Source: Patescibacteria group bacterium
GTDB lineage: Bacteria; Patescibacteriota; Microgenomatia; UBA1400; CG1-02-47-37
Length of the DNA: 64,000 bases
NCBI GenBank assembly: GCA_038065055.1
Contig: JBBTRT010000002.1
Span: 9,038-73,037, forward strand
Direction: 5' to 3'
Shown here: piece by piece, positions 7,046 to 52,350 of the stretch
Layout of the letters: every line of letters starts with the position of its first letter
Numbering within the stretch: the stretch's first letter is position 1
The notes under the pieces: model-generated
What the model was told of the DNA's origin: nothing
What the model saw: only the letters and a program-made list of their open reading frames with translations
Database searches by the model: none
Made by a program: the position numbers and the translations under genes

Positions 7046-7048
7046 AGT

Positions 7049-7060: not shown

Positions 7061-7062
7061 CC

Positions 7063-8731: not shown

Positions 8732-8736
8732 AATAT

Positions 8737-9513: not shown

Positions 9514-9520
9514 TAATGGT

Positions 9521-9528: not shown

Positions 9529-9534
9529 AGAACA

Positions 9535-11353: not shown

Positions 11354-11354
11354 T

Positions 11355-32841: not shown

Positions 32842-32847
32842 ATTATA
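32842..32847 (-). promoter_or_regulatory. -10 box for the acyltransferase-3 gene
   Basis: TATAAT on the - strand, 6 nt upstream of ATG 32835. It overlaps the first base of the divergent neuB-like start codon. Confidence 0.35.
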
Positions 32848-33881
32848 TGACAAAACTGGGTGGAAAAACTTGTTTTATTATTGCCGAGGCCGGAGTCAAC
32901 CATAATGGCGACGTGAAATTAGCGGAAAGATTAATTATCGCCGCGGCCAAGGCCGGGGCCGACGCCGTTAAATTCCAAACTTTTAAAGCAGAACAGGTAA
33001 CGACAAAGCACTCCCCGACCGCGGCTTACCAAAAGAAAAACGTGGGTGAAAACAATCAATGGAAATTGCTCCGGCCTTTGGAATTAAACGAATCGGCTTA
33101 CCCAAGATTAATTCAAATCGCTAAAGCCAATAAAATTATGTTTTTGTCGACGCCGCACGGACATATTGACTCAGCTAAATTCTTAAAACCTTTAGTCCCG
33201 GCCTGGAAAACCGGATCAGGCGATTTAACCAATCTGCCGTTTTTAAAATGGCTGGGAGAAACCGGCAAGCCGATTATTTTGGCAACCGGCATGGCAACAA
33301 TCGTGGAAATTAAAGAGGCCATAGATACGATTGCTAAAACCGGCAACAAAAAAATAATTATCCTGCACTGCACCACGAACTACCCTTGCCCGGATAATGA
33401 AGCTAATGTAGGGGCGATGCTGGATATTCAAAAAAACTTTCCTGATTATGCGGTGGGGTTTTCCGACCATACTTTAGGAATTGACGCGGATATGTTAGCG
33501 GCCGGACTGGGAGCAGTGATAATTGAAAAACATTTTACTTTGGACCGAAAAATGCCGGGGCCGGACCAGCAAAATTCATTGGAGCCTCAAGAGTTAAAAG
33601 AAATGGTAGAGAAAGTCAGAAGAATCGAAGTATTGAAAGGCAGTGGCATTAAAAAACCGTTTAAATCGGAAATAGTGATTGCCGAAATGGCCCGGAAAGC
33701 GGTGATCGCTTTAACCAATATCAAAAAGGGCAAAAAATTCAGTCATGAGAATTTAACGATCAAACGGCCCGCCAAAGGCGGCTTGCACCCGAAAATGTAT
33801 TGGGAATTAATCGGAAAAATTGCCGCCAAAAATATCCAGGCTGATAGCCAAATCCACGCAGATGATTGGCAAAACATTTGA
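32847..33881 (+). CDS. neuB: nonulosonic acid synthase (NeuB/LegI/PseI family)
   Basis: CFIIAEAGVNHNGDVKLAERLIIAAAKAGADAVKFQTF, HCTTNYPCP and GFSDHTLG, with a C-terminal SAF-like domain. Confidence 0.9.
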   Translation: MTKLGGKTCFIIAEAGVNHNGDVKLAERLIIAAAKAGADAVKFQTFKAEQVTTKHSPTAAYQKKNVGENNQWKLLRPLELNESAYPRLIQIAKANKIMFLSTPHGHIDSAKFLKPLVPAWKTGSGDLTNLPFLKWLGETGKPIILATGMATIVEIKEAIDTIAKTGNKKIIILHCTTNYPCPDNEANVGAMLDIQKNFPDYAVGFSDHTLGIDADMLAAGLGAVIIEKHFTLDRKMPGPDQQNSLEPQELKEMVEKVRRIEVLKGSGIKKPFKSEIVIAEMARKAVIALTNIKKGKKFSHENLTIKRPAKGGLHPKMYWELIGKIAAKNIQADSQIHADDWQNI

Positions 33882-34590
33882 CCTCACGGCGGCTTATTCA
33901 CAAAAGCTAACCGAAGTAAAAAAACTGTTGCATTATTACTTTGACCGAGCCGAAATTAAAAATAAGATCGTATTAGATGCCGGTTGCCGAGTGGGAGATT
34001 ATACCCAGGCTTTTATCAATATGGGGGCACGCAAAGTCATCGGCATTGATTTAAGCAGAAAGTGCCTTAAAACAGCCAAAAAAAGATATAAAAATAATAC
34101 AAAGGCTGCTTTTTACCGTGAGAATTTAACTAACTTGAAAAGATTCCGGGACAATTATTTTGACGCGATTTTTTGCGCCGGAACCATAAGCTATTTAAAT
34201 CCCCAAGATAGCAAAGCCGCGGTTAAAGAATTTGTCCGAATCAGTAAACCAAAAGGGGTCATAATTGTTTTGTTTCAAAAAGATAAAGGCCCGGTAATTC
34301 AAGTTGCCAGATGGATAGCTAATCACCTCCCGTTATCAATTTATCTTTTTTTAGTCGAAAACCTGGCTTTTTTATTAAAGCCAATTGTGGAAAAAATAAT
34401 CGACCGGAGTGTCAGCCTGAACTATCTTAAATATGATATTCTGCTGAGTTTGCGCGGGGTATATTTCGGGGTGCCGGTTAAAATAAATAAAAAATTCCGC
34501 ATCCAAACAATTAAATGCGAGCAGTGTTCGGAAGAAACCACCGCATCCTTTAAAATAATCCTGCCCGCAGACAAAAAGATGCTAAAATAA
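33820..34590 (+). CDS. class I SAM-dependent methyltransferase embedded in the nonulosonic acid operon
   Basis: Motif I VLDAGCRVGDYT, then FDAIFCAGTISYL. The start may be ATG at 33862 (MIGKTFD...). Confidence 0.7.
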   Translation: MPPKISRLIAKSTQMIGKTFDLTAAYSQKLTEVKKLLHYYFDRAEIKNKIVLDAGCRVGDYTQAFINMGARKVIGIDLSRKCLKTAKKRYKNNTKAAFYRENLTNLKRFRDNYFDAIFCAGTISYLNPQDSKAAVKEFVRISKPKGVIIVLFQKDKGPVIQVARWIANHLPLSIYLFLVENLAFLLKPIVEKIIDRSVSLNYLKYDILLSLRGVYFGVPVKINKKFRIQTIKCEQCSEETTASFKIILPADKKMLK

Positions 34591-34594
34591 CCTT

Positions 34595-35650
34595 ATGAAG
34601 AAAGCGGCTTATTTAACCGGGACCAGAGCAGAATTTGGTTTGATGCAGAAAATCTTAAAAAAAATTGACTCTAATTCCCATTTTAACCTTTTATTATTGG
34701 CTACCGGCATGCATTTATTGCCGGAATTCGGCCAAACAATCAATGAGGTAAAAAAAGAATTTCCTGAAGTAAAAATTATTACCGCCACCTATGAAGATGA
34801 TAATCGGTTATCCCAGGCCAGATTTTTAAGCCAATGCTGCCGGTTAGTGACGGAAACGCTGCAGCAAGAAAAACCGGACCTGGTGTTGGTTTTAGGCGAC
34901 CGGGCCGAACAACTGGCTATGGCCCAAACAGCGGCTTATTTAGCCATCCCCGTAATTCATTTGCACGGCGGCGAACATACTACCACGATTGACAATAAAG
35001 CCAGAAACGCAATTACCATGTTAGCTGATTATCATTTACCGGCAACAAAAAAATCAGCTGAAAAATTAATCTCAATGGGTATTGAAGCAAATAAAATACA
35101 GGTTGTTGGCGCCCCAGGATTGGACGAAATTAAAAATTTGGAAAAATCAGAGAAAAAAGAATTTTTAGTGGTATTGCAACACCCGGATGAGCAAGAACAA
35201 GATGCCGCCAAACAAATTTCTTCAACCCTGGAGGCGACTTTAAGTTTTAATTTACCGGTTAAAATTATTTACCCGAACAGCGATCCGGGCGGCAGGCAAA
35301 TAATTAAAGTCATTCAGGAATATGTGAAAAAATATCCGGATAAATTTGAGGCCTTACCTAATTTAATTCATGAGGATTATCTAAAATTGTTAAACCAAGC
35401 TCAGGCGCTAATCGGCAACAGTTCCAGCGCTTTGATTGAAGCGCCCAGTTTGGGACTAGCGGCAGTCAATATCGGACCGAGGCAAAAAGGCCGGGAAAAA
35501 GCCGGGAATGTGATTGAGGCTGATTATGACGAAAAAACAATAATTCAGGCAATTAAATTAGCTTTAACAAAAAAATTAACGGGAAAAGATAATCCTTACG
35601 GCGATGGGCAAACCAGCCAAAGAGTGATAAAATTCCTCGAAACACTATGA
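34595..35650 (+). CDS. neuC: UDP-sugar 2-epimerase, hydrolysing type (NeuC/LegG family)
   Basis: LTGTRAEFGLM, ATGMHL, GDRAEQL and VIHLHGGEHTTTIDN, the pattern of the hydrolysing branch. Confidence 0.8.
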   Translation: MKKAAYLTGTRAEFGLMQKILKKIDSNSHFNLLLLATGMHLLPEFGQTINEVKKEFPEVKIITATYEDDNRLSQARFLSQCCRLVTETLQQEKPDLVLVLGDRAEQLAMAQTAAYLAIPVIHLHGGEHTTTIDNKARNAITMLADYHLPATKKSAEKLISMGIEANKIQVVGAPGLDEIKNLEKSEKKEFLVVLQHPDEQEQDAAKQISSTLEATLSFNLPVKIIYPNSDPGGRQIIKVIQEYVKKYPDKFEALPNLIHEDYLKLLNQAQALIGNSSSALIEAPSLGLAAVNIGPRQKGREKAGNVIEADYDEKTIIQAIKLALTKKLTGKDNPYGDGQTSQRVIKFLETL

Positions 35651-36036
35651 ATCGATTTAAACAGTGGCAACAACCGGCATTTGATAAAAACGATATGACT
35701 AAATGGAATTGGATCTGCCAGCACCGGGATAAGTTCCAATTAGGAAAAAATACCGATATCGGCGCGTTTACCTATATTAATGCCAAATACGGAGTAATAA
35801 TCGAGGATGAAGTTCAAATCGGCAGCCATTGCGCGATTTATTCAGACAATACGATCGATAACATCCAGGGAAAGATTATTATTAAACAAGGAGCCAGAAT
35901 CGGCAGCCACACGGTGATCTTGCCGGGAGTAACGATTGGTGAAAACGCCTTAATCGGCGCCCACAGCTTAGTTAAACAAAATGTTGGCCCTAATGAAATC
36001 GTTGGCGGAGTGCCGGCAAGGCTAATTAAAAAATGA
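35647..36036 (+). CDS. left-handed beta-helix (hexapeptide-repeat) acetyltransferase (LegH/PglD-like role)
   Basis: Imperfect hexapeptide repeats IGSHCAIYSDNTI ... IGSHTVILPGVTIGENALIGAHSLV. Confidence 0.8.
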   Translation: MNRFKQWQQPAFDKNDMTKWNWICQHRDKFQLGKNTDIGAFTYINAKYGVIIEDEVQIGSHCAIYSDNTIDNIQGKIIIKQGARIGSHTVILPGVTIGENALIGAHSLVKQNVGPNEIVGGVPARLIKK

Positions 36037-37145
36037 AACAAATCCTACTTGGCCCTCCATCACTGGCTCAAGATGAAATCAAAGCGGTTTCCCGAGTGAT
36101 TAAAAGCGGCCAGTTAAGCCTGGGCGAAGAAACGGCTAAATTTGAACAAGAAATGGCCCAGTGGGTCGGGACAAAATACGCGGTGGCGGTTTCCAGCGGA
36201 ACCACTGGCCTGCATTTAGCGGTGATTGCCGCCGGAATTAAACAGGGCGATGAAGTAATTACTGCACCTTTTTCTTTTGTGGCTTCAACCAATTGTTTTT
36301 TATACGAAAAGGCCGTCCCTAAATTTGTGGATATTGACCAGGTAACTTTTAATATCGACGTAAATAAAATTGAAGCGGCTATAACAGATAAAACAAGGGC
36401 TATAGTCGGGGTGGATATTTTCGGCTATCCGGCTGAGTGGGGCAAAATATCAGCCATTGCCAAAAAATACAACTTGGCCGTCATTGAAGACGCGGCTGAG
36501 GCTTTGGGGGCCAAATATAAGGGTAAAAAATTAGGCAGCTTAGGCCAGCCGACTATTTTTGCTTTTTACCCGAACAAGCAAATGACTACCGGCGAAGGCG
36601 GCATGGTAGTAACTAATGATAAAAAAACTTATCAATTAATCAAAGGCTTAGCCAACCAGGGCCGCGGGCCGCAAATGCAGTGGTTAAAACATGAATATTT
36701 AGGCTATAACTACCGGATGACTGAACTATCAGCGGCGATCGGCCGGGCCCAACTTAAAAAACTTGATTGGTTTTTGAAAAGCCGGCAAAAAGTCGCCGGC
36801 TGGTACAATCAAAGATTAAAAAATATACCGGCAATTCAATTAATTAAAACGGATGATAAAGAACATGAGCGCAGCTGGTTTGTTTACGTAGTGAGATTGG
36901 ATAAAAAAATTAACCGGGATAAAATTATCAATAAACTGATCCGTGCCGGAATTCCCAGCAAGGCTTATTTACCGTCAATCCACTTACAGCCATATATGAA
37001 ACCATATGGATTTAAACCGGGCGATTTTCCGGTCAGCGAGGCAGTTTCCAATTCTACTTTATCTCTCCCCTTTTATACGGAGATGAAACAGTCAACGGTT
37101 GATTACGTTTGCGAAAAACTAATTAAAACTTTAAAATCAAGCTAA
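36033..37145 (+). CDS. DegT-family sugar 4-aminotransferase (LegC/PglE-like role)
   Basis: SSGTTGLHL, DEVITAPFSFVASTN and FAFYPNKQMTTGEGG. ATGA-type coupling on both sides. Confidence 0.85.
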   Translation: MKQILLGPPSLAQDEIKAVSRVIKSGQLSLGEETAKFEQEMAQWVGTKYAVAVSSGTTGLHLAVIAAGIKQGDEVITAPFSFVASTNCFLYEKAVPKFVDIDQVTFNIDVNKIEAAITDKTRAIVGVDIFGYPAEWGKISAIAKKYNLAVIEDAAEALGAKYKGKKLGSLGQPTIFAFYPNKQMTTGEGGMVVTNDKKTYQLIKGLANQGRGPQMQWLKHEYLGYNYRMTELSAAIGRAQLKKLDWFLKSRQKVAGWYNQRLKNIPAIQLIKTDDKEHERSWFVYVVRLDKKINRDKIINKLIRAGIPSKAYLPSIHLQPYMKPYGFKPGDFPVSEAVSNSTLSLPFYTEMKQSTVDYVCEKLIKTLKSS

Positions 37146-38137
37146 TGAATCATCCGAAAATTACCAATAAAAATATTTTAGTTTCCGGAGGCACCGGGTC
37201 GATCGGGTCAATTTTAGTCCAAAAAATTATCCGCGGCTTCCAACCAAAACAAGTCAGAATCTTGGATAATAACGAGGCCGGTTTATTCCAAGCCATAAGG
37301 CAGTATAAAAATAATGAAATCGTAAGGTGTTTCTTGGGCGATGTCCGGGATAAAGACCGGGTAAATTGGGCAATGAAAGGCGCAGACGCTGTTTTTCACG
37401 CCGCGGCTTTAAAACACGTGGAATTAAATGAATACTCGCCATTTGAGTCGGTTAAAACTAATGTACTCGGAACCCAAAATATGCTGGAAGCGGCGTTATT
37501 AAATAACGTGGAAACTTTCATTAATATTTCAACTGATAAGGCGGCTAATCCTACCAGCACCATGGGAGCGTCAAAATTATTGGCGGAAAGATTAACGTCC
37601 GGGGCCAATAATTTTAAAGGCAACGCCAGAACAGTTTTTGCCAGCGTGAGATTCGGCAATGTGCTAAATTCTTCCGGTTCGGTGTTGCCAATTTGGCAGG
37701 AAGAAATTCAGCAAGGCAAGGCTTTAACCGTGACCGATAAAAATATGATCCGGTACTTTATGACAATTGAGGATGCGGTCAGCTTGATTTGCAAAGCGGC
37801 GGCAACGGCAAAAGGCGGTGAAGTGTTTATTTTGAAAATGCCGGCACTAAAAATAATCGATTTAGCCGAAACTTTGAGCGAAATATTAGCCAAGCCGCTC
37901 AAAATTAAAACCGTCGGCAAAAGGCAGGGTGAAAAATTATTTGAGAAAATTGTGACCCGGACTGAGGCTGCTTTAGCTTTGGAATTATCGGAAATGTATG
38001 TTTTACCGGCTGCGGAAAACCGAGATTGGTATCGGCAAAACGGCGGTAAAGGCGTTCCTGAAGAAGGGGTGGAGCCGAAGAAGCTGATGACTAAAGCGGA
38101 AATTAAGCAATTATTAATCCGGATAGGGATAAAGTGA
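37145..38137 (+). CDS. nucleotide-sugar 4,6-dehydratase, Polysacc_synt_2 family (PglF/LegB-like)
   Basis: ILVSGGTGSIGSILV and STDKAANPTSTMGASK. Met140 (37562..37564) occupies the position of the SDR catalytic Tyr. Confidence 0.8.
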   Translation: MNHPKITNKNILVSGGTGSIGSILVQKIIRGFQPKQVRILDNNEAGLFQAIRQYKNNEIVRCFLGDVRDKDRVNWAMKGADAVFHAAALKHVELNEYSPFESVKTNVLGTQNMLEAALLNNVETFINISTDKAANPTSTMGASKLLAERLTSGANNFKGNARTVFASVRFGNVLNSSGSVLPIWQEEIQQGKALTVTDKNMIRYFMTIEDAVSLICKAAATAKGGEVFILKMPALKIIDLAETLSEILAKPLKIKTVGKRQGEKLFEKIVTRTEAALALELSEMYVLPAAENRDWYRQNGGKGVPEEGVEPKKLMTKAEIKQLLIRIGIK

Positions 38138-38916
38138 AACTGGTCATCGTTGGGTTAGGGTCAATCGGAAAAAGGCATAAAACAAATTTAGAATCTTTAG
38201 GCCATGAAGTAATTAATGATTATGCAGAAGCCGATGGAATTTTAATTTGCAACCCAACGGCATTGCACGTTAAAACCGCGCTGGAAGTTCAAAAATACCA
38301 TTTGCCTATTTTTATTGAAAAACCAATTTCTCATAATTTGGATAATCTAGATAAGTTAGCCGGAAATATCTTGGTCGGCTATTGTTTAAGATTTGATTGG
38401 TCTTTGCAAGAATTTAAAACCAAAATCAGCCAGGAAAAAATCCAAGCGGTAAAAATTGTTTGCCAAAGCTGGCTGCCGGATTGGCGGCCAGATAAAGATT
38501 ACCGCCAAAGTTATTCGGCAAAAAAGGAATTAGGCGGCGGGGTGCTGCTAGATTTGTCCCATGAAATTGATTATGCTTTATGGTTTTTCGGGCCGGTGAA
38601 AACAGTTAAAGCTAAATTACAAATGGTACCGGAATTAGAAATCGAAATCGAAGCCAAAGTTAATTTAGAGCTGGAATTTGTTTCCGGAGTAAAAGCAGAA
38701 ATGTATTTAAGTTATGCTGACAATGAATATAAAAGATTTTGCGAGGTGCAAACCGATAAGGAAAAGCTTGTTTGGAATTTTCAGCCGAATAACGAAATGT
38801 ATGTTGAAGAAATGAAACACTTTATTAAAGTAATTCAGGAAAAAGAAAAACCATTAATTACTGTGGCTGACGGCAAGAAAGTCCTAGAAGTAATCGAGGC
38901 GGCGAAAAATTCATGA
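38134..38916 (+). CDS. Gfo/Idh/MocA-family NAD(P) oxidoreductase
   Basis: LVIVGLGSIGKRH Rossmann and FIEKPIS (EKP motif). Confidence 0.7.
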   Translation: MKLVIVGLGSIGKRHKTNLESLGHEVINDYAEADGILICNPTALHVKTALEVQKYHLPIFIEKPISHNLDNLDKLAGNILVGYCLRFDWSLQEFKTKISQEKIQAVKIVCQSWLPDWRPDKDYRQSYSAKKELGGGVLLDLSHEIDYALWFFGPVKTVKAKLQMVPELEIEIEAKVNLELEFVSGVKAEMYLSYADNEYKRFCEVQTDKEKLVWNFQPNNEMYVEEMKHFIKVIQEKEKPLITVADGKKVLEVIEAAKNS

Positions 38917-39743
38917 ACCGTTATAACTTTGGCTTTGTCTTCACCGAGGTCACCATGTTGATCGTCGGTAAGTATTTATTAAACTTAGGTTTTCACCCTT
39001 ATTTTTATGGTGTGATCACCGGCGTCTGCGCTTCTTTAATTATGCTGAAGGCGTTTAAACTTCACCCAACAAAAGCGACCTTTATTGTCACACTGCCGAC
39101 GATTGTCTTTTTTACCATTGCCAACTCCTTAGGTTTTATGGCTTTAAAGTATAGCCAACTAACAAGCTATAATTTTTTAATCCAAAGCAGTTTGTTAACG
39201 GTACCGCTTTTGGCTCATTGGTTTTTAAAAGAAAAAATTCATTGGCTGATTTTTCCGCTTTCCTTGATTAATCTGATAGGCATCGCTCTACTGGTAAGCT
39301 TAAACCAAGCCGGGTTCCAATTCGGTAATGTTTTAACACTGCTGGCAGCAATTTTTGTTGGTTTGGATTTTGTTTGGCAAAAACGGGCCGCACTCAAAAT
39401 TAATCAAAATATCGTCGCTTTTTGGCGCCGGTTGATATCGTCACTTTTCCTGGGAATCTTTTGGCTCATGACACCGTCTTTGGGCACAGCCACTTTTAGT
39501 AATGCTTTGATATTAATCCCCATTTCCTTGCTTTATGTAGTCTTCTCATTATTGATGGTAAGAGCCTTAACTGTTCAACCTGTAGCCGACTTTAATTTAT
39601 TTATTACCATCTCTCCTGTTCTTACCGCCATAGCAGCTTTTTGGTTACTTGGCGAAACAATGACTTTAAAGCAAATAATCGGAGCAAGTTTAATCGTTAT
39701 CTCAATTATCGTTTATAATTGGTATAGGAAAACTAAAACATGA
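38913..39743 (+). CDS. EamA/DMT-superfamily transporter (10 TM)
   Basis: Two internally repeated 5-TM halves, each ending in an EamA-like block (LLAHWFLKEKIHW...IGIALLV and AFWLLGETMTLKQIIGASLIVISIIVY). Confidence 0.7.
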   Translation: MNRYNFGFVFTEVTMLIVGKYLLNLGFHPYFYGVITGVCASLIMLKAFKLHPTKATFIVTLPTIVFFTIANSLGFMALKYSQLTSYNFLIQSSLLTVPLLAHWFLKEKIHWLIFPLSLINLIGIALLVSLNQAGFQFGNVLTLLAAIFVGLDFVWQKRAALKINQNIVAFWRRLISSLFLGIFWLMTPSLGTATFSNALILIPISLLYVVFSLLMVRALTVQPVADFNLFITISPVLTAIAAFWLLGETMTLKQIIGASLIVISIIVYNWYRKTKT

Positions 39744-40288
39744 AACTCAAAAAACGGCTGATTATTTACGCCTTTATCGACAGCCAAAATTTAAATCTGG
39801 GCACCAGTAAAGATTTATTTAAAAATAAGAAACTTATTTATCGCGGCTGGAAATTAGATTTTAAAAAATTTCAGATCTACCTAAAAAACAAGTTTAAAGC
39901 CAGTAAGGCTTTTTTATTCATCGGCTATATAAAACAAAATCAAAAGCTTTATCAGTTTTTACGCCGTTGCGGTTACACTTTGATTTTTAAACCAACCACT
40001 AAAGACAACCACGGCAAATTCAAAGGTAATGTCGATGCCGAACTAATCCTTCATTCTGCCGCCATTGAATTTCCTCATTACAACAAAGCAATTATTGTTG
40101 CCGGAGACGGTGACTACCACTGTTTATTGGAATATTTAGAATCCAAAAATAAACTCTACAAACTAATAATTCCCAACCGGTATTCCGAATCCAGGTTGTT
40201 AAGTAAATTCCAATCTTATAAAATCTTTCTGTATCGAGAGAAAGATAACCTGATTTATGCCAATAAAAATGGGAGGCGTCGCACATAA
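39740..40288 (+). CDS. NYN-domain (LabA-like, PIN-fold) protein
   Basis: Acidic motifs IYAFIDSQNLNLG, GNVDAELILH and IIVAGDGDYHCLLEYL. ATGA overlap with the EamA gene. Confidence 0.6.
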   Translation: MKLKKRLIIYAFIDSQNLNLGTSKDLFKNKKLIYRGWKLDFKKFQIYLKNKFKASKAFLFIGYIKQNQKLYQFLRRCGYTLIFKPTTKDNHGKFKGNVDAELILHSAAIEFPHYNKAIIVAGDGDYHCLLEYLESKNKLYKLIIPNRYSESRLLSKFQSYKIFLYREKDNLIYANKNGRRRT

Positions 40289-40370: not shown

Positions 40371-41054
40371 ATGATTCTGGCTGTCATTCCCGCACGGAGC
40401 GGGTCAAAATCAGTTAAAGATAAAAATATCCGGCCTTTGGGCGGAAGGCCGTTGATGGCATGGTCGATTAAAACCGCTCTTGCCTGCAAACAAATTGATA
40501 AAGTAGTTGTTTCTACTGATAGCGAAAAATACGCCCAGTTGGCTAAATTTTACGGCGCAGAAGTTATTATGCGGCCGGCAGAACTGGCGACTGATGAGGC
40601 AGCTATGATACCGGTGTTACAACACGCCTTGAAAACCTATCCGGCAGATTTGATAGTCTTGCTTGACCCAACTTCACCTCTAAGAAATGTAGTTGATATT
40701 AATAAATGCTTGGAATTAATTAAACAACCGGAAACAGATTCGGTAATTACGATTTGCGAGGTAGAACATAATCCGTTTTACGTGATGGGGGTGATTAAAA
40801 ATAACTATTGGCAGTTTCCAATTGCTAAACCGGAAAAAGAAATCCATCGGCGGCAAGACGCGCCCAAGGCTTACCGGGTTAACGCGGCAGTTTATATCAT
40901 AAAAAAAGAAATTTTAATGGCCGGTAAAATATTTACCGATAAAACCCGGACAGTCGAAATGCCGCAAGAGCGATCCAGCCATATTGATAGCGAACTTGAT
41001 TTTAAATACATTGAATTTTTATTAAAGGAGAAATATGTCAAATCAGATTTTTAA
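40371..41054 (+). CDS. neuA: CMP-nonulosonic acid synthetase (NeuA/LegF cytidylyltransferase family)
   Basis: ILAVIPARSGSKSVKDKNI at the N-terminus and RRQDAPKAYRVNAAVY. 227 aa. Confidence 0.85.
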   Translation: MILAVIPARSGSKSVKDKNIRPLGGRPLMAWSIKTALACKQIDKVVVSTDSEKYAQLAKFYGAEVIMRPAELATDEAAMIPVLQHALKTYPADLIVLLDPTSPLRNVVDINKCLELIKQPETDSVITICEVEHNPFYVMGVIKNNYWQFPIAKPEKEIHRRQDAPKAYRVNAAVYIIKKEILMAGKIFTDKTRTVEMPQERSSHIDSELDFKYIEFLLKEKYVKSDF

Positions 41055-41748
41055 CTTAGAAAATAAAGTCGTGTTAATTACCGGAGCCACCGGGATTCAA
41101 GGCCCGGAACACGTTAAAGCCTTTAAATCAGTCGGGGCGATCGTCGTAGCAACTGATATCAAAGATACGGAAATTATTCTGGATGTGACCAGCAAAGATT
41201 CCATCCAAACGGCGACTAAAAAAATTATTGAAAAATACGGACAAATTGACACGCTAATCAATAATGCCGGGGCCACCGGTAAATATGCCACTGACTGGGA
41301 GCAAATCATTAAAGTAAATTTAACCGGGACTTATAATTGCTCTGAAATCATCGGCGCGATGATGAAGCAGGGATCGATTATTAATGTTAGCTCGATTTAC
41401 GGCTTAGTGGGACCGGACTGGTCACTTTATGAAAATGCAAATTATGACGGTAAACCGATGGGGGTGCCGGCCGGATACGCGGCCAGTAAGGGCGGAGTAA
41501 TCGCTTTAACGAAGTATTTCGCCTCGCTTTACGCGCCAAAAATCAGGGTTAATTGCGTTGTTCCCGGAGGCATTTTCGATAACCAACCGGAAAGTTTTGT
41601 GAAAAAATATTCGACAAAAACAATGCTTGGCCGCATGGCAAATAAGAATGAAGTTTCCGGAGCATTACTTTATTTGGCGTCAGACCTATCCAGTTATGTG
41701 ACCGGAGCTAATATTGTTATCGACGGCGGTTTAACAGCCAGGGTATGA
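41035..41748 (+). CDS. classical short-chain dehydrogenase/reductase
   Basis: VVLITGATGIQG, INNAGATG, YAASKGG (YxxxK). Confidence 0.8.
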   Translation: MSNQIFNLENKVVLITGATGIQGPEHVKAFKSVGAIVVATDIKDTEIILDVTSKDSIQTATKKIIEKYGQIDTLINNAGATGKYATDWEQIIKVNLTGTYNCSEIIGAMMKQGSIINVSSIYGLVGPDWSLYENANYDGKPMGVPAGYAASKGGVIALTKYFASLYAPKIRVNCVVPGGIFDNQPESFVKKYSTKTMLGRMANKNEVSGALLYLASDLSSYVTGANIVIDGGLTARV

Positions 41749-43295
41749 AACAAAGCTGGCAAAAGATAGCGGCGATTTTATCGATCGGACTCTGGATTGC
41801 GGCCGGGCTTTACGGTTTGATTTTCAACATCAGTTACATTGATGAAGCGAAATACATAATGAAGGGTTGGTTGATGCTTAACGGGGAAGTTGAGTACTAC
41901 ACCACCGGCGGCTTTCTTTATCAACATATGCCGGGCAGTTTGCTCTGGCAGGGATTAGGGCAAAGACTTTGGGGACCGAGTTTGCTGGCAGGAAGATTAC
42001 AATCATTCATACTGGGATTATTGGTTCTGCTTAGCAGTTGGCGGTTAAGCCAAAAAATCAGCGGGAAAATAGCCGGAACAATGACTTTGATTTTATTAGG
42101 TTTAGCCCCGACCGTTACTTTTTATTATTCAACCGCGACGCCGCAATCATTACTGGTTTTAGGATTAATGCTAGGTTTTATTGCTTTATATGAAAGCAAG
42201 TTTTTATTGGCGTCAGTTTGGTTCAGTTTAACTTTTATCATCAGAGAAAATTTTTTATTTACCCTGCTGCTTTATATTGGCTTTCTAATAATAGTGAAGC
42301 GAAAGAATCTCAATTCTCTGCTGTTAAATTTACTGGTAATCGGGGTAACTTTAAGTATTTTTTTAATTCCCGGATATCCGGGAACGATTAACATTTTAAA
42401 AAATTTGCCGTGGGTAAACTTCATATTGCCGGTAAGCCAGTCAGAAAAAGATATCTTGGGAATGTACTGGAAGGAAGATTTACAATCATTAGGCTTATAT
42501 TGGCGGGCAATCAGAGATTTTGGAGTCGTATTTCATGCTTGGATAATAATCGGCGGGTTATTAATAATTGATTGGGTGAGGCAAAGAAAACAAATAATAC
42601 TGAGCTTTAAGCCCAAACAATTATTTTGGCTGTTTTTAATCGGCATTACCGGTTTTAATTTTATAATCCACAGTTGGGCGGCATTTAGATTATCGCCGCG
42701 GGCAATTATCAGTTATTTTCCTTATGTGGCCCCATTAGTCGCCGTGATCATGGCCCATGGATTAGCTAGTTGGTTTAAGAAAGTTAAAAATAAAAAAATA
42801 TTTCTAGCAGGATATCTTGCTTTATTGGTTTTATTGCCAATTACTGTCCGTTACGGGGCAAATTTTGCCATTCCTACCAAGTGGTCGGATTTAAGACTGA
42901 TTAACCGTTCCGGTAAAATATTAAAACCAATTGTGGCGGATAAAACCAAGATTATCTGGATCGCTGAACCAATCAGCTTGTTTATGGCAGGCAAAGTGTC
43001 ATATTATCCCCTGATTAACCATACCGGTTTTTATAAACCTTCGGCTGACACAGACACTGTCCGGAGCTTAGGATTTTGGAATATGGCCATGCTGAAGGAA
43101 TGGTTTAATGAAGCAGATCTTGTGGTCATCGAAGATAATAAAATGAAGCTTTTGAGAGAAAGCAGCCAGGCGACAGAGTTAGCGGAATTGATAAAAGACA
43201 CTTTAGCGGCTAAGTATAAACTAATTTGGAAAACTAATGATCTTTGGCCAAAAGGTTTAGAATTTTATCAACCGCTTGGCCGCCATGAACGGTGA
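41745..43295 (+). CDS. GT-C-like membrane glycosyltransferase (family 39/ArnT-PMT type)
   Basis: First-loop ISYIDEAKYIMKGW, about 11 TM segments and a C-terminal soluble domain of about 150 aa. Confidence 0.55.
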   Translation: MKQSWQKIAAILSIGLWIAAGLYGLIFNISYIDEAKYIMKGWLMLNGEVEYYTTGGFLYQHMPGSLLWQGLGQRLWGPSLLAGRLQSFILGLLVLLSSWRLSQKISGKIAGTMTLILLGLAPTVTFYYSTATPQSLLVLGLMLGFIALYESKFLLASVWFSLTFIIRENFLFTLLLYIGFLIIVKRKNLNSLLLNLLVIGVTLSIFLIPGYPGTINILKNLPWVNFILPVSQSEKDILGMYWKEDLQSLGLYWRAIRDFGVVFHAWIIIGGLLIIDWVRQRKQIILSFKPKQLFWLFLIGITGFNFIIHSWAAFRLSPRAIISYFPYVAPLVAVIMAHGLASWFKKVKNKKIFLAGYLALLVLLPITVRYGANFAIPTKWSDLRLINRSGKILKPIVADKTKIIWIAEPISLFMAGKVSYYPLINHTGFYKPSADTDTVRSLGFWNMAMLKEWFNEADLVVIEDNKMKLLRESSQATELAELIKDTLAAKYKLIWKTNDLWPKGLEFYQPLGRHER

Positions 43296-45042
43296 TATAC
43301 CGGGCACAGGCTTGTTTGGCTTGCTGCAATTCCTGTTTGGTTTGGGGCTGATTGGGATCAGTTAAGATTGTCAGCCATTTAGTTAAACCGCGCCGATTGG
43401 TCACGGTAACCGCCCCGCCGTCTTTAATAATGGGGAGGAAAAAACCATAGTCTTTTTTAAAAGGATTGACACTAATTACCGGCCGGTTCATCATAATTGC
43501 TTCAAAAACAGTCATGGACCAAGTTTGCAGCACCACGGAACAGACGTTGAGCAGTTCGACTAATTCCAGTTGATTATTATCTGTTACAATCGCGTTAGCA
43601 ATTCCCCATTCTTTTAACTCTTCTAAAACCCGGTAGCGTTTTTCACTGGGATGAGGCTTAATGACTAAAACCGTGTTTTTACCGGCTGCCACGGCCCGTG
43701 AAGCCAGTTGGAAAAAAGCGGCTTTTTCCGGTTTGGGGATCATCTGGCTGGGACCAAAAGAAATCAACAGAGCAATTTTTTTATCTAATTTATCAACCCC
43801 CAACAGTCTATATATTTGTTTTTTGGTCAATTTCGGTTTATTCTGCTGCTGTAAATCGCCCACCACTGTTAATTTTTTTTCAGGCACCCCAATTTTAATA
43901 AGCTGGTTTTTTACAAAATCTCCAGGCAAGGCAATTTTATCTGTCGTATCATATGAATTAAGCCAGTCTAAAGCCAATAAAGTATTGGGAGAAACTAAGA
44001 GTGATTGCACCTGATTAGTTTTAGCCAAAGCGGCCAGGGACAGCTCACAAAATCTTGAGTCAGACACTACTATAACCGCTTTGGGTTTAATCTGCTTAAA
44101 TAAATTGGCGCCAGCGGCCAGGTAAAGCCGGCTTAAAGTTTGGCCCAGTTCAATCATCGGAGCAGCAGCAGTTAAACCCAGGTTGTATAAAAAATCAGCC
44201 TGGTTTTTAACTGAATTTATTTTTTTTGGCAAACTAACTGGCCGGAGAGTAAACTCTTTAGGCAGAAAGCCGGCTAAAAAGAAGTGATGAGCTGAAACTT
44301 GATTTAAATTTTTTAAAACCGGTTTAACATTAATTATATCAGTCACCAGCCAGGGATTATGGTGATGTTTCTCCAAAGCTTGATAAAGCGGGGCTAAGGT
44401 TTTAAAGTGGCGAAAAAAATCAAGGCTCATAAGCATAGCAGAGCGGAGGTTTTGAATTGGCGGCGGCGGAATTTGAGCGGCTAACTTAAATTGATTAATT
44501 TTCTTTTGAAACTGGCGCCGGAGAAAAAATCTTTTCAGCCAGTGATTAAGCCAGATAAAGGTCATGAAGTGAGGCTTTAAAACTTTTACCTTTATCTCTT
44601 GGGCCAAATAGGAAGCGATTTGTTCAAGATAACTGCTACTTAAAGTGATGACTAAATCAGGTTTAATTTTTTTAAACAGCTTGACATAAAGCGGAACATA
44701 AATAAAATAATCATAGGTTAAATGAATGGCTAAACGGTTGAAAAATAAATTCTGAGGGAAAGTTTTTAATAATCTGTCAGTTAGGTCTAAATATTGACGC
44801 CGGTTAGCAGCATAATCAAGCTTGGCTAGTTCAGTACCATAATAATAAACAGAGCTGTCATGAAGCTCAAAGGCGTCAGAAGTAATCACGGAAAGCTTAA
44901 AGAACCGCTGAAGGAGAAAAACGGCCAGCTTAAGCCGAGTTTTAAGCCAACTAAGATAAAGAAAGCTAAAGAGCCTGCCTAATAATCCGGTCAGGGTCTG
45001 GATTTTAATGATATCCTCTGTAATAATTAAGGCGCTTTTCAT
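43234..45042 (-). CDS. 602-aa GT-B-like protein with an HP motif (TagF/KpsS/sialyltransferase-like C-terminal domain); candidate CMP-sugar transferase
   Basis: C-terminal LVIKPHPSEK (His464-Pro465, 43648..43653) followed by LLNVCSVVLQTWSMTVFEAIMMNRPVISV, a GT-B C-domain pattern. No close family recognised. Confidence 0.4.
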   Translation of the reverse strand: MKSALIITEDIIKIQTLTGLLGRLFSFLYLSWLKTRLKLAVFLLQRFFKLSVITSDAFELHDSSVYYYGTELAKLDYAANRRQYLDLTDRLLKTFPQNLFFNRLAIHLTYDYFIYVPLYVKLFKKIKPDLVITLSSSYLEQIASYLAQEIKVKVLKPHFMTFIWLNHWLKRFFLRRQFQKKINQFKLAAQIPPPPIQNLRSAMLMSLDFFRHFKTLAPLYQALEKHHHNPWLVTDIINVKPVLKNLNQVSAHHFFLAGFLPKEFTLRPVSLPKKINSVKNQADFLYNLGLTAAAPMIELGQTLSRLYLAAGANLFKQIKPKAVIVVSDSRFCELSLAALAKTNQVQSLLVSPNTLLALDWLNSYDTTDKIALPGDFVKNQLIKIGVPEKKLTVVGDLQQQNKPKLTKKQIYRLLGVDKLDKKIALLISFGPSQMIPKPEKAAFFQLASRAVAAGKNTVLVIKPHPSEKRYRVLEELKEWGIANAIVTDNNQLELVELLNVCSVVLQTWSMTVFEAIMMNRPVISVNPFKKDYGFFLPIIKDGGAVTVTNRRGLTKWLTILTDPNQPQTKQELQQAKQACARYITVHGGQAVDKILNLLAKDH

Positions 45043-45048
45043 AGTATG

Positions 45049-45054
45049 ATTATA
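45049..45054 (-). promoter_or_regulatory. -10 box for the 602-aa GT-B-like gene
   Basis: TATAAT on the - strand, 6 nt upstream of ATG 45042. Confidence 0.35.
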
Positions 45055-45056
45055 GC

Positions 45057-45818
45057 TTGTTTATGAAAACTGTCAGAATTATTCCCAAATTAGAGGTAAA
45101 AAACGAAAACCTGATCAAGGGGGTGCATTTGGACGGGTTAAGAATTGTGGGTAAGCCGGAGAAAGCGGCTTTGGAGTATGCCCAGGCCGGGGCAGACGAA
45201 TTAATTTACCTGGATTTGGTGGCCAGCCTTTACCAACGGGAAAATTGGATTAAGATTGTCCGGCGCACGGCCGAACAGATTTATATTCCTTTAACCGTTG
45301 GCGGCGGCATCCGCACCCTGGAAGATGCTAAGTTGTTTTTCCGCAATGGAGCAGATAAAGTGGCAATTAACACCGGCATTGTTAATAATCCCAGGCTCGT
45401 AACCATAATCGCAAAAAAATTCGGCTCCCAAGCGATGGTGGCATCTTTGGAAGTGCAAAAAAAGATTAGCGGCGGCTATGAAGTTTTCACTGATTCCGGC
45501 CGGACGCAGACCGGGCTTGATCCGGTTACTTGGGCAAAAAAAGTGGAAAAATTGGGAGCCGGAGAAATTCTCCTGACATTTATTCACCGGGACGGAACGA
45601 TGAAAGGATATGACCTTGAATTACTGCGGCAAATTTCCAGCCAGGCAAAAATTCCGGTGATCGCGAGCGGCGGGGCCGGGACAATTGAAGACCTAATTGA
45701 AGCCATAAAAGCCGGAGCGGATGCGCTAGCGATTGCCTCGCTGTTACACTTTAAAAAAATGACCATCGGCCAAATTAAGGCCCAACTTAAGTTAAAAAAT
45801 ATAAAAATTAGATTATGA
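45057..45818 (+). CDS. HisF-like cyclase subunit (WbuZ/HisF2-type, acetamidino sugar modification)
   Basis: LTVGGGIRTLEDA and VIASGGAGTIEDL phosphate-binding blocks. The track start is TTG at 45057; the first ATG is at 45063. Confidence 0.85.
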   Translation: MFMKTVRIIPKLEVKNENLIKGVHLDGLRIVGKPEKAALEYAQAGADELIYLDLVASLYQRENWIKIVRRTAEQIYIPLTVGGGIRTLEDAKLFFRNGADKVAINTGIVNNPRLVTIIAKKFGSQAMVASLEVQKKISGGYEVFTDSGRTQTGLDPVTWAKKVEKLGAGEILLTFIHRDGTMKGYDLELLRQISSQAKIPVIASGGAGTIEDLIEAIKAGADALAIASLLHFKKMTIGQIKAQLKLKNIKIRL

Positions 45819-46420
45819 AAATCGCGTTGATTGATTACGGGGCCGGCAACTTATTTTCCGTCGAAAGAGCCTTGAAATTTAGCGGAGCTGATTATTATTT
45901 AGCTACTAAAGCAGAACAAATTATTAAGGCTGACAAGCTGGTTTTGCCTGGAGTAGGCGCGTTTTGCGACGGGATGAAGGGATTGAAAAAAAATAAATTG
46001 AGCCAAGCAATTATAAGCGCGGCTCGGCAACAAAAACCAATTTTGGGCATCTGCCTGGGAATGCAACTAATGATGAGTTCGGGCCACGAATTCGGCATTC
46101 ATCAAGGCTTGGGTTTAATTGAAGGCGTGGTCAATAAAATAACAACCCAAGAAAAACTGCCGCAAATCGGCTGGAATGAGCTTAAAATTTTAAAAGAGTC
46201 ACCGTTGCTTAATGGAATTAAATCGGGCGATTATTTTTATTTTGTGCATTCTTTTGTTTGCCGGCCAAAAAACCCAAAAGTTATGGTCACGACGACTAAT
46301 TATGGCGGAGATAATTTTTGCTCTGTTTTAGCCGATAAAAACATTTATGGGGTGCAGTTTCACCCGGAAAAAAGCGGCCCTGAAGGCTTAAAAATTTACC
46401 AAAACTTTGTTAAGCTTTAA
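45815..46420 (+). CDS. HisH-like glutamine amidotransferase subunit (WbuY-type)
   Basis: KIALIDYGAGNLFSV, Cys nucleophile in PILGICLGMQLMM, and GVQFHPEKSG. Confidence 0.85.
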   Translation: MKIALIDYGAGNLFSVERALKFSGADYYLATKAEQIIKADKLVLPGVGAFCDGMKGLKKNKLSQAIISAARQQKPILGICLGMQLMMSSGHEFGIHQGLGLIEGVVNKITTQEKLPQIGWNELKILKESPLLNGIKSGDYFYFVHSFVCRPKNPKVMVTTTNYGGDNFCSVLADKNIYGVQFHPEKSGPEGLKIYQNFVKL

Positions 46421-46428: not shown

Positions 46429-47610
46429 TTAAGAAACAACGTGTTTTAAACGCCATTTCCCCTTAATTTTTTCCCACAGGTGCGGTTGGCGGTAACGGTC
46501 GATAATTTTCCAAAAATGAGCTTCGGAAATATCCAGATAGGCTAAAAATTCCTTAAAATATTTCCGGGGAAATTCGCCATCATAACGGCGGACTAAAGCC
46601 ACACCTTCTTCCCGGGTAATGTGCTGACTTCTGATTTCCATTTGAGCATCCCGCGATGCGCGGCCCAAGCCGAATTTTATATACCCCAAATAAAAGTGAA
46701 AGCCGTCTGTCTTGTCATCCAGGCTGGAATATTTAGTGTAGGTACCTTCAGATCGGCCATCAGGGTTCGCTTCAAAATTTGTATGCTTGGTGGCACAATA
46801 GAAATTTTCTTGGGGAATCCACTGGTGATAATAAGAAAACCAGTGCATTTGAATGCCTAGTTCGTTAATTTTTTTGAGGGCGGGCGGGCGGTAAAGAGCA
46901 AAAGTTTCCGGCTGAATTTCAGCTGGGTTAAAGATGCCCAGTTTAAGCCCGGCTTTAATCAAAGCATCAACCCCGGCGCCCTTGAAATACAGCTCTTCCC
47001 AATCAGCCACCGATTCGTAGGGCTTATTTTTATTTTTAACCGAACCGCCGTATTCGACCTCACCGTTCTCGCCGTAAAAAATCAAAGGAATACCAAACTT
47101 CAAAGCCACATGGAAAGCATAGGCTTTTTGCCCAAAAGCAAACGGCTCCCAGGCATCGCCTTTTAATTCAAAAGCCACCCGGGCCAGCTTGCGATGCAAT
47201 TGACCATTGGGGTTGAACAGAAGATTATCATAACCAGCCTGAACAAAATTATTATAATTTTTCCAACCAATATCGGTGTAAATAAACGGCGCCCAGGTAA
47301 CGGTTAAGGGGTGCATACCGTAATGATGCTTTAACTGGTAAGCCACCAGGGCACTATCTTTGCCGCCGCTACTGGGAATAACTACATCAAAACTACCGTT
47401 TTTAGAGCGGTGCCGATCGAGCAATTTGACCAGTTCCTGTTCCCTTTGCTGCCAATTAATTTGATGCTGTTTTTCCTCATGATAACGGCAGGCGCTGCAG
47501 ATACCCTCGCTGTCGATGGTAATTCGGGGGCGTTGATTAGAAACCACGCAACGCTTGCAAAAAACAACTGTTTTAGGTAACTGTTCCAGTTGTTTGTCTA
47601 ATGTTTTCAT
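46429..47610 (-). CDS. N-acetyl sugar amidotransferase (WbuX/PseA-type PP-loop ATPase)
   Basis: Zinc-ribbon CKRCVVSN...CSACRYHEEK and PP-loop VIPSSGGKDSALV. 393 aa. Confidence 0.8.
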   Translation of the reverse strand: MKTLDKQLEQLPKTVVFCKRCVVSNQRPRITIDSEGICSACRYHEEKQHQINWQQREQELVKLLDRHRSKNGSFDVVIPSSGGKDSALVAYQLKHHYGMHPLTVTWAPFIYTDIGWKNYNNFVQAGYDNLLFNPNGQLHRKLARVAFELKGDAWEPFAFGQKAYAFHVALKFGIPLIFYGENGEVEYGGSVKNKNKPYESVADWEELYFKGAGVDALIKAGLKLGIFNPAEIQPETFALYRPPALKKINELGIQMHWFSYYHQWIPQENFYCATKHTNFEANPDGRSEGTYTKYSSLDDKTDGFHFYLGYIKFGLGRASRDAQMEIRSQHITREEGVALVRRYDGEFPRKYFKEFLAYLDISEAHFWKIIDRYRQPHLWEKIKGKWRLKHVVS

Positions 47611-48954: not shown

Positions 48955-49640
48955 AATCTTATGATTGTAAACAAATATTTTTTCCCTCTTTTGGCAAAAC
49001 CGAAAATATTCGAGGCTGTCTTGGATTCACCATGCTCCCGAGGCACACAGTCATAAGGAACTTCTTTTATTTTAAATCCCCGCCGGAGACTGTTAACTAA
49101 TAGGTCGATACAATATTCACCATAATCACCGTTTAACTTATAGTGATTAAAGACAATTTTTTTAGATAAAATGTAGCCACTGGTGTAATCGGTTAATGAA
49201 TGGCCAAGAAATAATCCGGCAGTTTTATTTAATATCAAACTGAGAAATACTGCCAGTTTATTTTCCCTTTGATCGTGGCCGCCGGTAACATACCTTGAAC
49301 CAATCACTAAATCGTATTCGGGAATTAATTTAATCATGTTAGTTAAATATTTTGGCGGCATGGATAAATCTGCATCCATCCAACCAATAACCTCTCCCCG
49401 GCTTTGCTGGATCCCAAAATTAAAAGCACTGGTTAATCCCCGTTCATGAAGACGACGGAATAATTTGATTCTATGGTCATGTTTTTGCAACTTTTGAACT
49501 ATTTGCCAGGTTTTATCCGGAGAATTATCATCAACCACAATAATTTCATATTGCCTTTTTTTCAAGATTAAACTAATTTGATTAATTAAATTAGCAATAT
49601 TGCCGGCTTCATTGTAGGTAGGAAGAATAATGGAAATCAT
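48939..49640 (-). CDS. GT2 polyprenyl-phosphate-sugar synthase (DPM1/Ppm1/ArnC-like)
   Basis: ISIILPTYNEAGNI, VVDDNSPDKT, WMDADLSMPP. Confidence 0.8.
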   Translation of the reverse strand: MISIILPTYNEAGNIANLINQISLILKKRQYEIIVVDDNSPDKTWQIVQKLQKHDHRIKLFRRLHERGLTSAFNFGIQQSRGEVIGWMDADLSMPPKYLTNMIKLIPEYDLVIGSRYVTGGHDQRENKLAVFLSLILNKTAGLFLGHSLTDYTSGYILSKKIVFNHYKLNGDYGEYCIDLLVNSLRRGFKIKEVPYDCVPREHGESKTASNIFGFAKRGKKYLFTIIRLWLKK

Positions 49641-52347: not shown

Positions 52348-52350
52348 AAA

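Follow-up and report, generated by a model that had tools for sequence, protein, structure and literature searches.

A KxHP-motif GT-B protein beside a CMP-nonulosonic acid pathway in Patescibacteria: a predicted nonulosonate transferase

Which enzyme moves a nonulosonic acid, a nine-carbon sugar resembling sialic acid, onto its glycan once the sugar has been activated with cytidine monophosphate (CMP)? The transferases are the least known step of the legionaminic acid (Leg) and pseudaminic acid (Pse) pathways, and the question is posed directly by a stretch of 64,000 nucleotides from an uncultured Patescibacteria group bacterium (contig JBBTRT010000002.1; here called the window). In this DNA an original prediction, made from the letters alone, had singled out a gene lying between a CMP-nonulosonic acid operon and an acetamidino module. 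The gene occupies 43234..45042 on the minus strand and encodes a soluble, basic, three-domain protein of glycosyltransferase B (GT-B) type, a candidate CMP-nonulosonate transferase. That the protein is a GT-B CMP-nonulosonate transferase serving a surface glycan is the best-supported reading of our data, well-supported but unproven, and we regard it as probable while leaving real room for doubt.

The open reading frame (ORF) runs from an ATG at 45042 to a stop codon at 43234 and specifies 602 amino acids. No hydrophobic segment of the protein is of sufficient length for a transmembrane helix, and an isoelectric point of 9.84 makes it strongly basic. Translation recovers both the 602-residue frame and the His464-Pro465 motif of the original prediction, with KPHPSEK encoded at 43639-43659 and QTWSMTVFEA at 43498-43527. 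It also contains LLNVCSVVLQTWSMTVFEAIMMNRPVISV, which had been taken as the layout of a C-terminal GT-B nucleotide-binding domain; the GT-B assignment is borne out by the structural model described below. The dipeptide HP occurs once in the protein, where composition alone predicts 0.65 occurrences. The motif nevertheless stands far beyond chance, because it is invariant in all 37 members of the family and near-invariant in an 88-member superfamily.

The protein had been called an orphan, and this label was wrong. When 5.8 billion proteins were searched through a word index, 37 full-length homologue clusters emerged, 33-79% identical to our protein, and every named source among them belongs to the Patescibacteria. 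Among 1.84 billion cluster representatives scanned exhaustively with HMMER, 642 matched at E≤1e-3; the number falls to 104 at E≤1e-10 and to 43 at E≤1e-30. Many of the matches are 600-660 residues long and some, of about 350-400 residues, are without the first domain. Among GTDB species genomes, the full-length family was located in Candidatus Beckwithbacteria (61% identity in the complete genome CP011210), and distant relatives of the C-terminal domain turned up in Bacteroidia, Melioribacteraceae, Ignavibacteria, Deltaproteobacteria, Anaerolineae, Nocardioidaceae and one Methanosarcinales archaeon. The protein belongs to a widespread uncharacterised family that occurs at full length mostly in Candidatus Beckwithbacteria. 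Several database entries for these homologues are unnamed, ‘hypothetical’ or automatically named ‘UDP-N-acetylglucosamine 2-epimerase’, and the last of these labels is probably wrong.

Conservation was followed in an alignment of the narrow family (A1, 37 members) and in a broad superfamily profile (A3), with residue counts taken over an 88-sequence superfamily alignment. The residues invariant across A1 are T8 and D10 (within LIITED), R211-H212-x-K214, D235, D328-x-R330-x-x-E333, S351-P352, E439-K440, K462-P463-H464-P465-x-E467 and K530; N353 is kept in 36 of the 37, as are both S509 and E514 (within QTWSMTxFEA). Over the superfamily H464 and S509 are present in all 88 sequences, P465 in 87 and K462 in 84 (with one further Arg). 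Position 467 is Glu or Asp in 81, position 514 in 84 and position 328 in 77. A 2026 structural paper describes (K/R)XHP as conserved among sialyltransferases of families GT29, 38, 42, 52 and 80 and among retaining 3-deoxy-D-manno-octulosonate (Kdo) transferases of families GT99 and 107, with the Pro packing on cytosine and the Lys or Arg hydrogen-bonding to cytosine O2/N3 (PMC12887879). K462-P-H464-P465 is an exact match to this signature. The original prediction had named a conserved HP motif as a feature of bacterial enzymes with CMP- or CDP-activated donors; a CMP-activated donor is supported here by this match and by the retention of KxHP in 84 to 88 of the 88 sequences.

An AlphaFold2 model built with A1 reached a predicted local distance difference test (pLDDT) score of 90.7 and a predicted template modelling (pTM) score of 0.88, and a Foldseek search with it against the PDB retrieved GT-B proteins at E values around 1e-10. 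In this confident model a GT-B fold spans residues ~201-602 and is preceded by an extra Rossmann-like domain of residues 1-200. The two GT-B halves (~201-415 and ~416-602) were placed by secondary structure, by profile alignments to solved epimerases and by alignment to the NeuC protein of the locus. The N-terminal, acceptor-side GT-B domain (residues 201-415; 43798..44442, minus strand) carries the invariant R211-H212-x-K214, D235 and S351-P352-N353, together with the motif S327-D328-S-R330-F-C-E333 at the end of strand beta4 (44044..44064), in which D328 is a candidate catalytic base or acid. The C-terminal domain (residues 416-602; 43237..43797) is the predicted nucleotide-binding half and contains the (K/R)XHP signature K462-P-H464-P465-S-E467-K, invariant in 37 of 37 (43639..43659). 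It also contains Q-T-W-S509-M-T-V-F-E514-A (43498..43527), which, judged from residue conservation, would form the N-terminus of the GT-B phosphate/ribose-binding helix.

The original prediction had found nothing recognisable in the N-terminal 300 or so residues. For residues ~201-415 this does not hold, since they form an ordinary GT-B N-domain. What remains is the extra domain of residues 1-200 (44443..45042, minus strand), which has the invariant T8 and D10 (LIITED) and long basic helices at residues 19-44 and 163-189, and which weakly resembles a GT-B half. An hhalign comparison of residues 115-159 with residues 307-352 gave 36% identity at E 7e-4 and a probability of 26%. Residues 1-200 modelled alone reached a pLDDT of 85, and Foldseek matched this model to 2-epimerases and MurG weakly (E 6e-3 to 0.09, probability up to 0.99). 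These comparisons are suggestive, but not proof, of a degenerate extra copy of the GT-B N-half from which the SDxR motif has been lost.

Genome context points in the same direction as the motif. On one side, on the plus strand at 32847..38916, are the nonulosonic acid biosynthesis genes, encoding a NeuB-type synthase (403 bits), a methyltransferase, a NeuC-type hydrolysing 2-epimerase (353 bits against a 236-bit cutoff), a hexapeptide N-acyltransferase, a DegT aminotransferase, a PseB-like 4,6-dehydratase and a GFO/IDH oxidoreductase. The pathway mixes PseB/PseC-like with NeuC/NeuB-like enzymes. A CMP-nonulosonate synthetase (CTP_transf_3; PseF/NeuA-like) at 40371..41054 (plus strand), which would supply the proposed donor, is conserved in the loci. 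It is followed by a PtmA-like short-chain dehydrogenase/reductase gene and then by the convergent partner of our gene at 41745..43295 (plus strand), which encodes a 516-residue polytopic protein resembling glycosyltransferase C (GT-C) and PMT_2 proteins and is a candidate extracytoplasmic glycan transferase. Its PMT_2 score of 22 bits lies below the cutoff; it has nine hydrophobic segments, and its orthologues carry recorded PMT_2 matches. On the other side is the acetamidino module, consisting of WbuZ/HisF-like (45057-45818, plus strand), HisH/WbuY-like (45815-46420, plus strand) and WbuX N-acetyl-sugar amidotransferase (46429-47610, minus strand) genes. The position of the gene between the CMP-nonulosonic acid operon and the acetamidino module is therefore as originally described.

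This arrangement is not peculiar to one genome. The order of the core genes is unchanged in the loci examined at gene level, in which the orthologues of our protein are 33-62% identical to it. By tblastn, NeuB, NeuC and the CMP-synthetase were found together in all eight family loci with enough flanking sequence, and a homologue of the GT-C-like partner was found in nine of 11, directly adjacent wherever genes were called. Linkage also extends to distant relatives. A relative of 26% identity (P0038) sits in a reordered cluster (GFO/IDH, CTP_transf_3, PglD-like, P0038, NeuB, NeuC), 590-residue relatives from Bacteroidia abut a NeuB gene, and loci from Ignavibacteria, Nocardioidaceae and Methanosarcinales carry homologues of NeuB, the CMP-synthetase or both. 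In a full-length relative of 894 residues (P0084), itself within a nonulosonic acid cluster, a CTP_transf_3 cytidylyltransferase is fused onto the C-terminal end. Because the linkage survives shuffling of gene order, changes of phylum and domain fusion, it provides the strongest argument for a CMP-nonulosonic acid as the donor.

The original prediction also stated that no other obvious sialyltransferase-like or Maf-like gene is present. Our family-library scans covered 18.8-64 kb of the window, and in the scanned parts no Maf, GT38, GT42, GT52 or GT80 gene was found. Nor was a paralogue found: profile searches of all ORFs of the window for a second superfamily member matched only NeuC and a GT4 enzyme, both weakly. 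One further ORF considered for such a role, at 11355-13142, encodes a soluble protein of 595 residues that proved to be an asparagine synthase of AsnB type.

Taken with the residue data, the context suggests how the enzyme might work. A cytoplasmic, peripherally membrane-associated GT-B enzyme would take a CMP-activated 5,7-diamino nonulosonic acid from the flanking pathway, a sugar of Leg or Pse type that is probably N-acetimidoylated, and move it to a hydroxyl of a growing, probably lipid-linked, surface glycan. The C-domain would bind CMP, with K462 on the cytosine and H464 on the phosphate leaving group; S509 and E514/E467 may hold the phosphate and ribose, and P465 would also lie in the CMP site. 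Across the cleft, at the end of strand beta4, D328 would activate the acceptor hydroxyl; it would act, together with R330 and E333, on either the acceptor or the donor sugar. D328 aligns with D95 of WecB and with the Asp of the GD-R motif in NeuC. It is a candidate for the catalytic carboxylate, standing in for the Asp/Glu-Asp/Glu-Gly (D/E-D/E-G) motif of other transferases, and its placement relative to H464 is by topological equivalence to D95 and H213 of WecB. Binding to the acceptor or the membrane is probably the task of the extra N-terminal domain together with the strongly basic surface. The Wzx-like flippase encoded at 54750-56048 would flip the completed glycan, and the GT-C-like partner (41745-43295) would then pass it on.

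The only experimentally anchored members of the GT-B superfamily to which our family belongs are enzymes of Tannerella forsythia. When Tanf_01245 or TFUB4_00887 is deleted, the O-glycan loses its terminal Pse or Leg derivative, which complementation brings back; these nonulosonic acid transferases carry a TagB-like domain and have HP, DXD and D/E-D/E-G motifs (PMC5420450). Like our protein, the Tannerella proteins of general O-glycosylation (Tanf_01245, TFUB4_00887, BFO_1060) are soluble GT-B/TagB-like enzymes with an HP motif in the C-domain and a CMP-nonulosonic acid pathway alongside. Our protein is some 240 residues longer, a difference that includes the additional N-terminal Rossmann-like domain. 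NF046086, the BFO_1060 family glycosyltransferase model, is its best NCBIfam match, aligning residues 441-580 with positions 205-341 of the 365-position model. The family is also tied to TIGR04396, which with TIGR04326 and TIGR04331 comprises surface carbohydrate families of Leptospira type; these are uncharacterised GT-B proteins of surface-glycan loci in one superfamily with ours, and a literature search on TIGR04396 returned nothing relevant. Among 87 distant relatives the NCBIfam matches were TIGR04396 in 86 and BFO_1060 in 85 (best E for these two 1e-33 to 1e-35), with TIGR04326 in 22 and the TarB/TarF models in 14-15.

More distantly, the protein shares a GT-B fold and (K/R)XHP in the nucleotide-binding domain with GT38, GT52, GT80, WaaA (GT30), KpsC/KpsS (GT107), WbbB (GT99) and the Pse transferase KpsS1 (GT118). 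The motif is likewise that of the retaining ulosonic-acid transferases as a group (GT99, GT107, GT118 and GT140). CMP-dependent GT-B transferases place their catalytic carboxylate on the opposite domain, as we propose for D328. Our protein differs from them in its three-domain layout and in having neither a significant sequence match to any of them nor a D/E-D/E-G motif. Searched against Glyphos_transf (PF04464), Capsule_synth (PF05159), polysialyltransferase (PF07388) and GT52 (PF07922), it gave no match at E≤10. The family and superfamily do reach some of these models. Pfam matches among the 37 family members were Epimerase_2 in 37, Glyphos_transf in 29 (best E 1.6e-12), Capsule_synth in 11 and polysialyltransferase in three; among the 88 superfamily members they were Glyphos_transf in 65, Capsule_synth in 59, polysialyltransferase in six and GT52 in three, those to PF07388, PF07922 and PF05159 being weak. 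Against the PDB the narrow profile A1 was almost empty, and only the broad A3 reached TagF-like structures and KpsC (6mgb, E 3.8e-7). A PDB search with a fragment of the family consensus around KPHP returned only designed repeat proteins, which we regard as artefacts.

Several observations weigh against a CMP-nonulosonate transferase. The original prediction stands as the best-supported reading on the strength of KxHP, the nearest curated models, synteny and the fusion, but the protein reaches the threshold of no curated transferase family: it scores 46.1 bits against a cutoff of 200 for NF046086 and 35.2 against 125 for TIGR04396 (residues 441-600). The best relative tested scored 93 bits against BFO_1060, and no individually tested relative reached the cutoff of either model. 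Because every score lies far below its cutoff, we place the family as a sister group of BFO_1060/TIGR04396 and not as a member. The only Pfam model that the protein passes is Epimerase_2, narrowly (31.8 bits against 30.6) and partially (model positions 134-284 of 347, residues 378-525). Comparison of the predicted structure with the PDB, which had been proposed as a check, supported a GT-B fold, but the best matches were UDP-N-acetylglucosamine (UDP-GlcNAc; UDP, uridine diphosphate) 2-epimerases and not transferases; the first genuine transferase, the CMP-Kdo transferase WaaA, ranked 33rd. The D/E-D/E-G motif that had been expected close to His464 is absent: no [DE][DE]G occurs in the protein or its family and the family has no conserved DxD, the sole conserved acidic pair being E9-D10, which is followed by Ile, Val or Leu. 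The Tannerella enzymes have both motifs, come from a different phylum and resemble our protein in the C-terminal domain only. There is also a cautionary precedent in Bacillus subtilis SpsB, which has a TagB domain with DEG and HP motifs and lies next to a Leg pathway, yet is dispensable for Leg transfer (PMC7439481). Finally, the predicted function of the family rests on sequence, modelled structure and gene context. It is because inference from context and motif has failed before in this superfamily, with SpsB, that we hold the transferase reading as probable and no more.

The epimerase likeness raises a rival reading, in which the protein works on a nucleotide sugar in the manner of an epimerase or hydrolase, as a divergent paralogue of NeuC, WecB or PseG type in the nonulosonic acid pathway. 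The top 32 Foldseek matches in the PDB are all UDP-GlcNAc 2-epimerases (target-normalised TM-scores of 0.62-0.72 at 10-16% identity), the superfamily profile matches epimerases at E 6e-15 to 1e-6, Epimerase_2 alone passes its Pfam cutoff and some homologues bear the 2-epimerase name. With the epimerases WecB, MnaA and NeuC (PF02350) the protein shares an Asp equivalent to D95, its SD328xR aligning with the GD-R motif of NeuC, and with the non-hydrolysing members a His that closes the second strand of the C-domain. By mutagenesis, D95, E117 and E131 are the catalytic carboxylates of Escherichia coli WecB, and it is on the two glutamates that an epimerase assignment fails. The glutamate of HVE117AG aligns with S351, which is Gln in most relatives; the loop bearing P-E131-E is a seven-residue deletion in the superfamily. 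The glutamate of NeuC HGGE falls in a gap and NeuC has Asn at the position of H464, while the Lys two residues before the His in KxHP is missing from epimerases, as is the extra N-terminal domain. The NeuC equivalog model gives our protein 24.8 bits against a cutoff of 235.9. The operon itself already encodes a genuine NeuC, as does every orthologous locus, which leaves no epimerase step unoccupied. A PseG-like nucleotidase role was rejected because the NeuC-type hydrolysing epimerase takes that step. We consider an epimerase or hydrolase highly improbable, and assignment to a non-glycosyltransferase family, an outcome that the original prediction had named as fatal to it, fails on the catalytic residues. 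A TagF/TagB-type phosphotransferase, moving glycerol- or ribitol-phosphate from a cytidine diphosphate (CDP)-polyol onto a cell-wall polymer, is very unlikely for other reasons. TagF, TagB and TarF (PF04464) belong to the same GT-B superfamily as our protein, and TagF-type enzymes use cytidine-nucleotide donors and are peripheral membrane enzymes acting on lipid-linked polymers. Both the PF04464 matches of the family and superfamily and the TarB and TarF matches of the distant relatives favour this reading, as does the match of A3 to the TagF-like Cps3D (8qoy, E 3.7e-8). Such weak matches are expected, however, because the Tannerella nonulosonic acid transferases carry a TagB domain, and our protein itself does not match PF04464. 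The neighbourhoods have no CDP-polyol supply, their conserved linkage being to CMP-nonulosonic acid genes. No TagD/TarI/TarJ-type, glycerol-3-phosphate or ribitol-phosphate cytidylyltransferase gene was found in 18.8-64 kb of the window, and no CDP-glycerol/ribitol synthesis or teichoic-acid gene appears in the Pfam listings of the conserved neighbourhoods or among the called genes of loci L001-L005 and of L021, the P0084 cluster. The conserved neighbour and the fusion partner are CTP_transf_3 enzymes, as for CMP-ulosonic acids, and not glycerol-3-phosphate cytidylyltransferases. A clear TagF clade accompanied by teichoic-acid genes, the other outcome named beforehand as decisive, was thus not seen.

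The remaining alternatives keep the protein within the glycan pathway. It might be a GT-B glycosyltransferase with a UDP- or guanosine diphosphate (GDP)-sugar donor, the nonulosonic acid being moved by another enzyme. The best PDB match of profile A3 is indeed a UDP-glucose-dependent GT28-type diacylglycerol glucosyltransferase (9wde, E 7e-16), some family members match GT1 or GT4 Pfam models weakly and SpsB warns that context and an HP motif can mislead. In the alignment to 9wde, however, nothing corresponds to the KxHP segment, an invariant feature that characterises CMP donors. For ordinary sugars the locus already has three GT4 and five GT2 enzymes, with no other candidate for the nonulosonic acid, while the fusion to a cytidylyltransferase and the linkage seen in several phyla speak specifically for a CMP-sugar; we therefore think a UDP- or GDP-sugar donor unlikely. 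As a special case of the CMP-nonulosonate transferase, the enzyme may act processively as a polymerase of a nonulosonic acid homopolymer or of a nonulosonic-acid-rich polymer. The weak polysialyltransferase matches in three of 37 and six of 88 members would fit, a strongly basic protein with an extra domain could hold an anionic polymer, and the acetamidino module and Acyl_transf_3 O-acyltransferases occur in one locus, a combination that presumably parallels the Legionella lipopolysaccharide locus with its poly-Leg5Am7Ac O-chain. The many other glycosyltransferases, the Wzx-type flippase and the GT-C-like proteins are instead what loci for heteroglycan repeat units typically carry. The scanned parts of the window showed no ABC-transporter export system and the sequence gives no indication of processivity, so we allow a polymerase only a very small chance.

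Some details of the locus bear on the gene and its immediate neighbours. Our gene and the WbuZ/HisF-like gene start back-to-back (45042-45063), 14-20 nucleotides apart, and a 20-nucleotide gap is likewise present in loci L001 and L002; both promoters must therefore lie inside coding sequence. At its other end the gene overlaps the 3′ end of the GT-C-like gene by 62 nucleotides (43234-43295), and by 12-28 nucleotides in orthologous loci (L001-L003 and L005 being those compared), so that these convergent ends leave no room for terminators.

Within the biosynthetic operon, the gene for the hexapeptide-repeat N-acyltransferase (129 residues; 35647-36036, plus strand), flanked by those for NeuC and the aminotransferase, makes the nonulosonic acid pathway complete. 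Its counterpart in orthologous loci is either a hexapeptide gene of 128-129 residues or, in L002, a fusion of formyltransferase and hexapeptide parts, a difference suggestive of N-formyl and N-acetyl variants of the sugar. The GFO/IDH/MocA oxidoreductase (38134-38916, plus strand) is short, with 260 residues, a GTG start and a partial NAD-binding-domain match. Its counterparts have 295-297 residues in L002 and L003 and 190 in L001, so that some lineages may carry a truncated or decaying copy. Genes for an EamA-family transporter (276 residues) and a NYN-domain predicted RNase (182 residues), at 38913-40288 (plus strand), separate the oxidoreductase gene from that for the CMP-synthetase; EamA recurs in L003, and no NYN gene was seen in L001-L003.

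Beyond the acetamidino module the window encodes GT2 enzymes, membrane proteins, methyltransferases, a LegC-like aminotransferase, the Wzx-like flippase and GT4 enzymes. Polytopic membrane proteins with 9-20 hydrophobic segments number at least nine and are encoded at 47632-49640, 51622-53694 and 57339-58829 (all minus strand) and within 4200-27563. A Pfam scan of those at 47632-48954, 52351-53694, 57339-58829, 23477-25210 and 25194-27563 gave no match; five others are encoded within 4200-18783. Two of the polytopic genes directly follow genes for small GT2 enzymes that look like polyprenyl-phosphate sugar synthases (PgfS/ArnC/PpgS-like), which suggests that the window holds several extracytoplasmic glycosylation pairs of GT2-plus-GT-C type. 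The glycan locus also contains a split transketolase, as N-terminal and pyrimidine/C-terminal subunits, with a VTC-domain and DUF4956 pair nearby (28384-30095 and 22046-23442, minus strand). Split transketolases of glycan clusters usually add two-carbon branches to sugars.

Three of the compared loci deserve separate mention. L021 (6052-7956 and 10001-12685) also encodes a NeuB-AP_endonuc_2 fusion (634 residues), a second NeuB fragment and an AsnB-like amidotransferase, and an AsnB-type gene is likewise present in the window. Loci L009 (CAZDQA010000027.1) and L011 (CAYPXO010000010.1) are both labelled ‘uncultured Pseudomonadales’. The neighbours in L011 are 32-54% identical to proteins of the window; L009 is a locus of Beckwithbacteria type with neighbours 61-79% identical to them, and for this reason is probably mis-binned or mislabelled.

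As a kind of enzyme, a GT-B transferase of KxHP type in a CMP-nonulosonic acid locus is already known. The family is set apart by lying below the threshold of every curated transferase family, by a third, probably duplicated domain, by its conserved GT-C partner and by its Patescibacteria host. To our knowledge few Leg or Pse transferases are known besides the Maf flagellin enzymes, KpsS1 (GT118) and the genetically defined Tannerella enzymes, and we know of none of this type with a solved structure or reconstituted activity. In the literature library searched, no paper mentions nonulosonic acids in connection with Patescibacteria or the candidate phyla radiation (CPR). It is a speculative and rather unlikely proposition that the proteins constitute a new glycosyltransferase family of three-Rossmann-domain, KxHP-type CMP-nonulosonate transferases with an obligate GT-C partner, placing an acetamidino sugar of Leg or Pse type on the envelope of CPR bacteria; if true, these bacteria would gain their first described system for glycosylation with a nonulosonic acid. 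More broadly, general transferases of Leg and Pse to non-flagellar glycans have long been sought, and the wider superfamily of proteins of about 600 residues, which extends from Bacteroidia to a Methanosarcinales archaeon, could prove to be these enzymes. A coherent family with a conserved KxHP, Ser and acidic residues offers concrete targets for expression, mutagenesis and chemoenzymatic synthesis of Leg and Pse glycosides. For the organisms themselves, a full pathway together with its transferase and GT-C partner would indicate a sialic-acid-like surface decoration in episymbiotic ultra-small bacteria.

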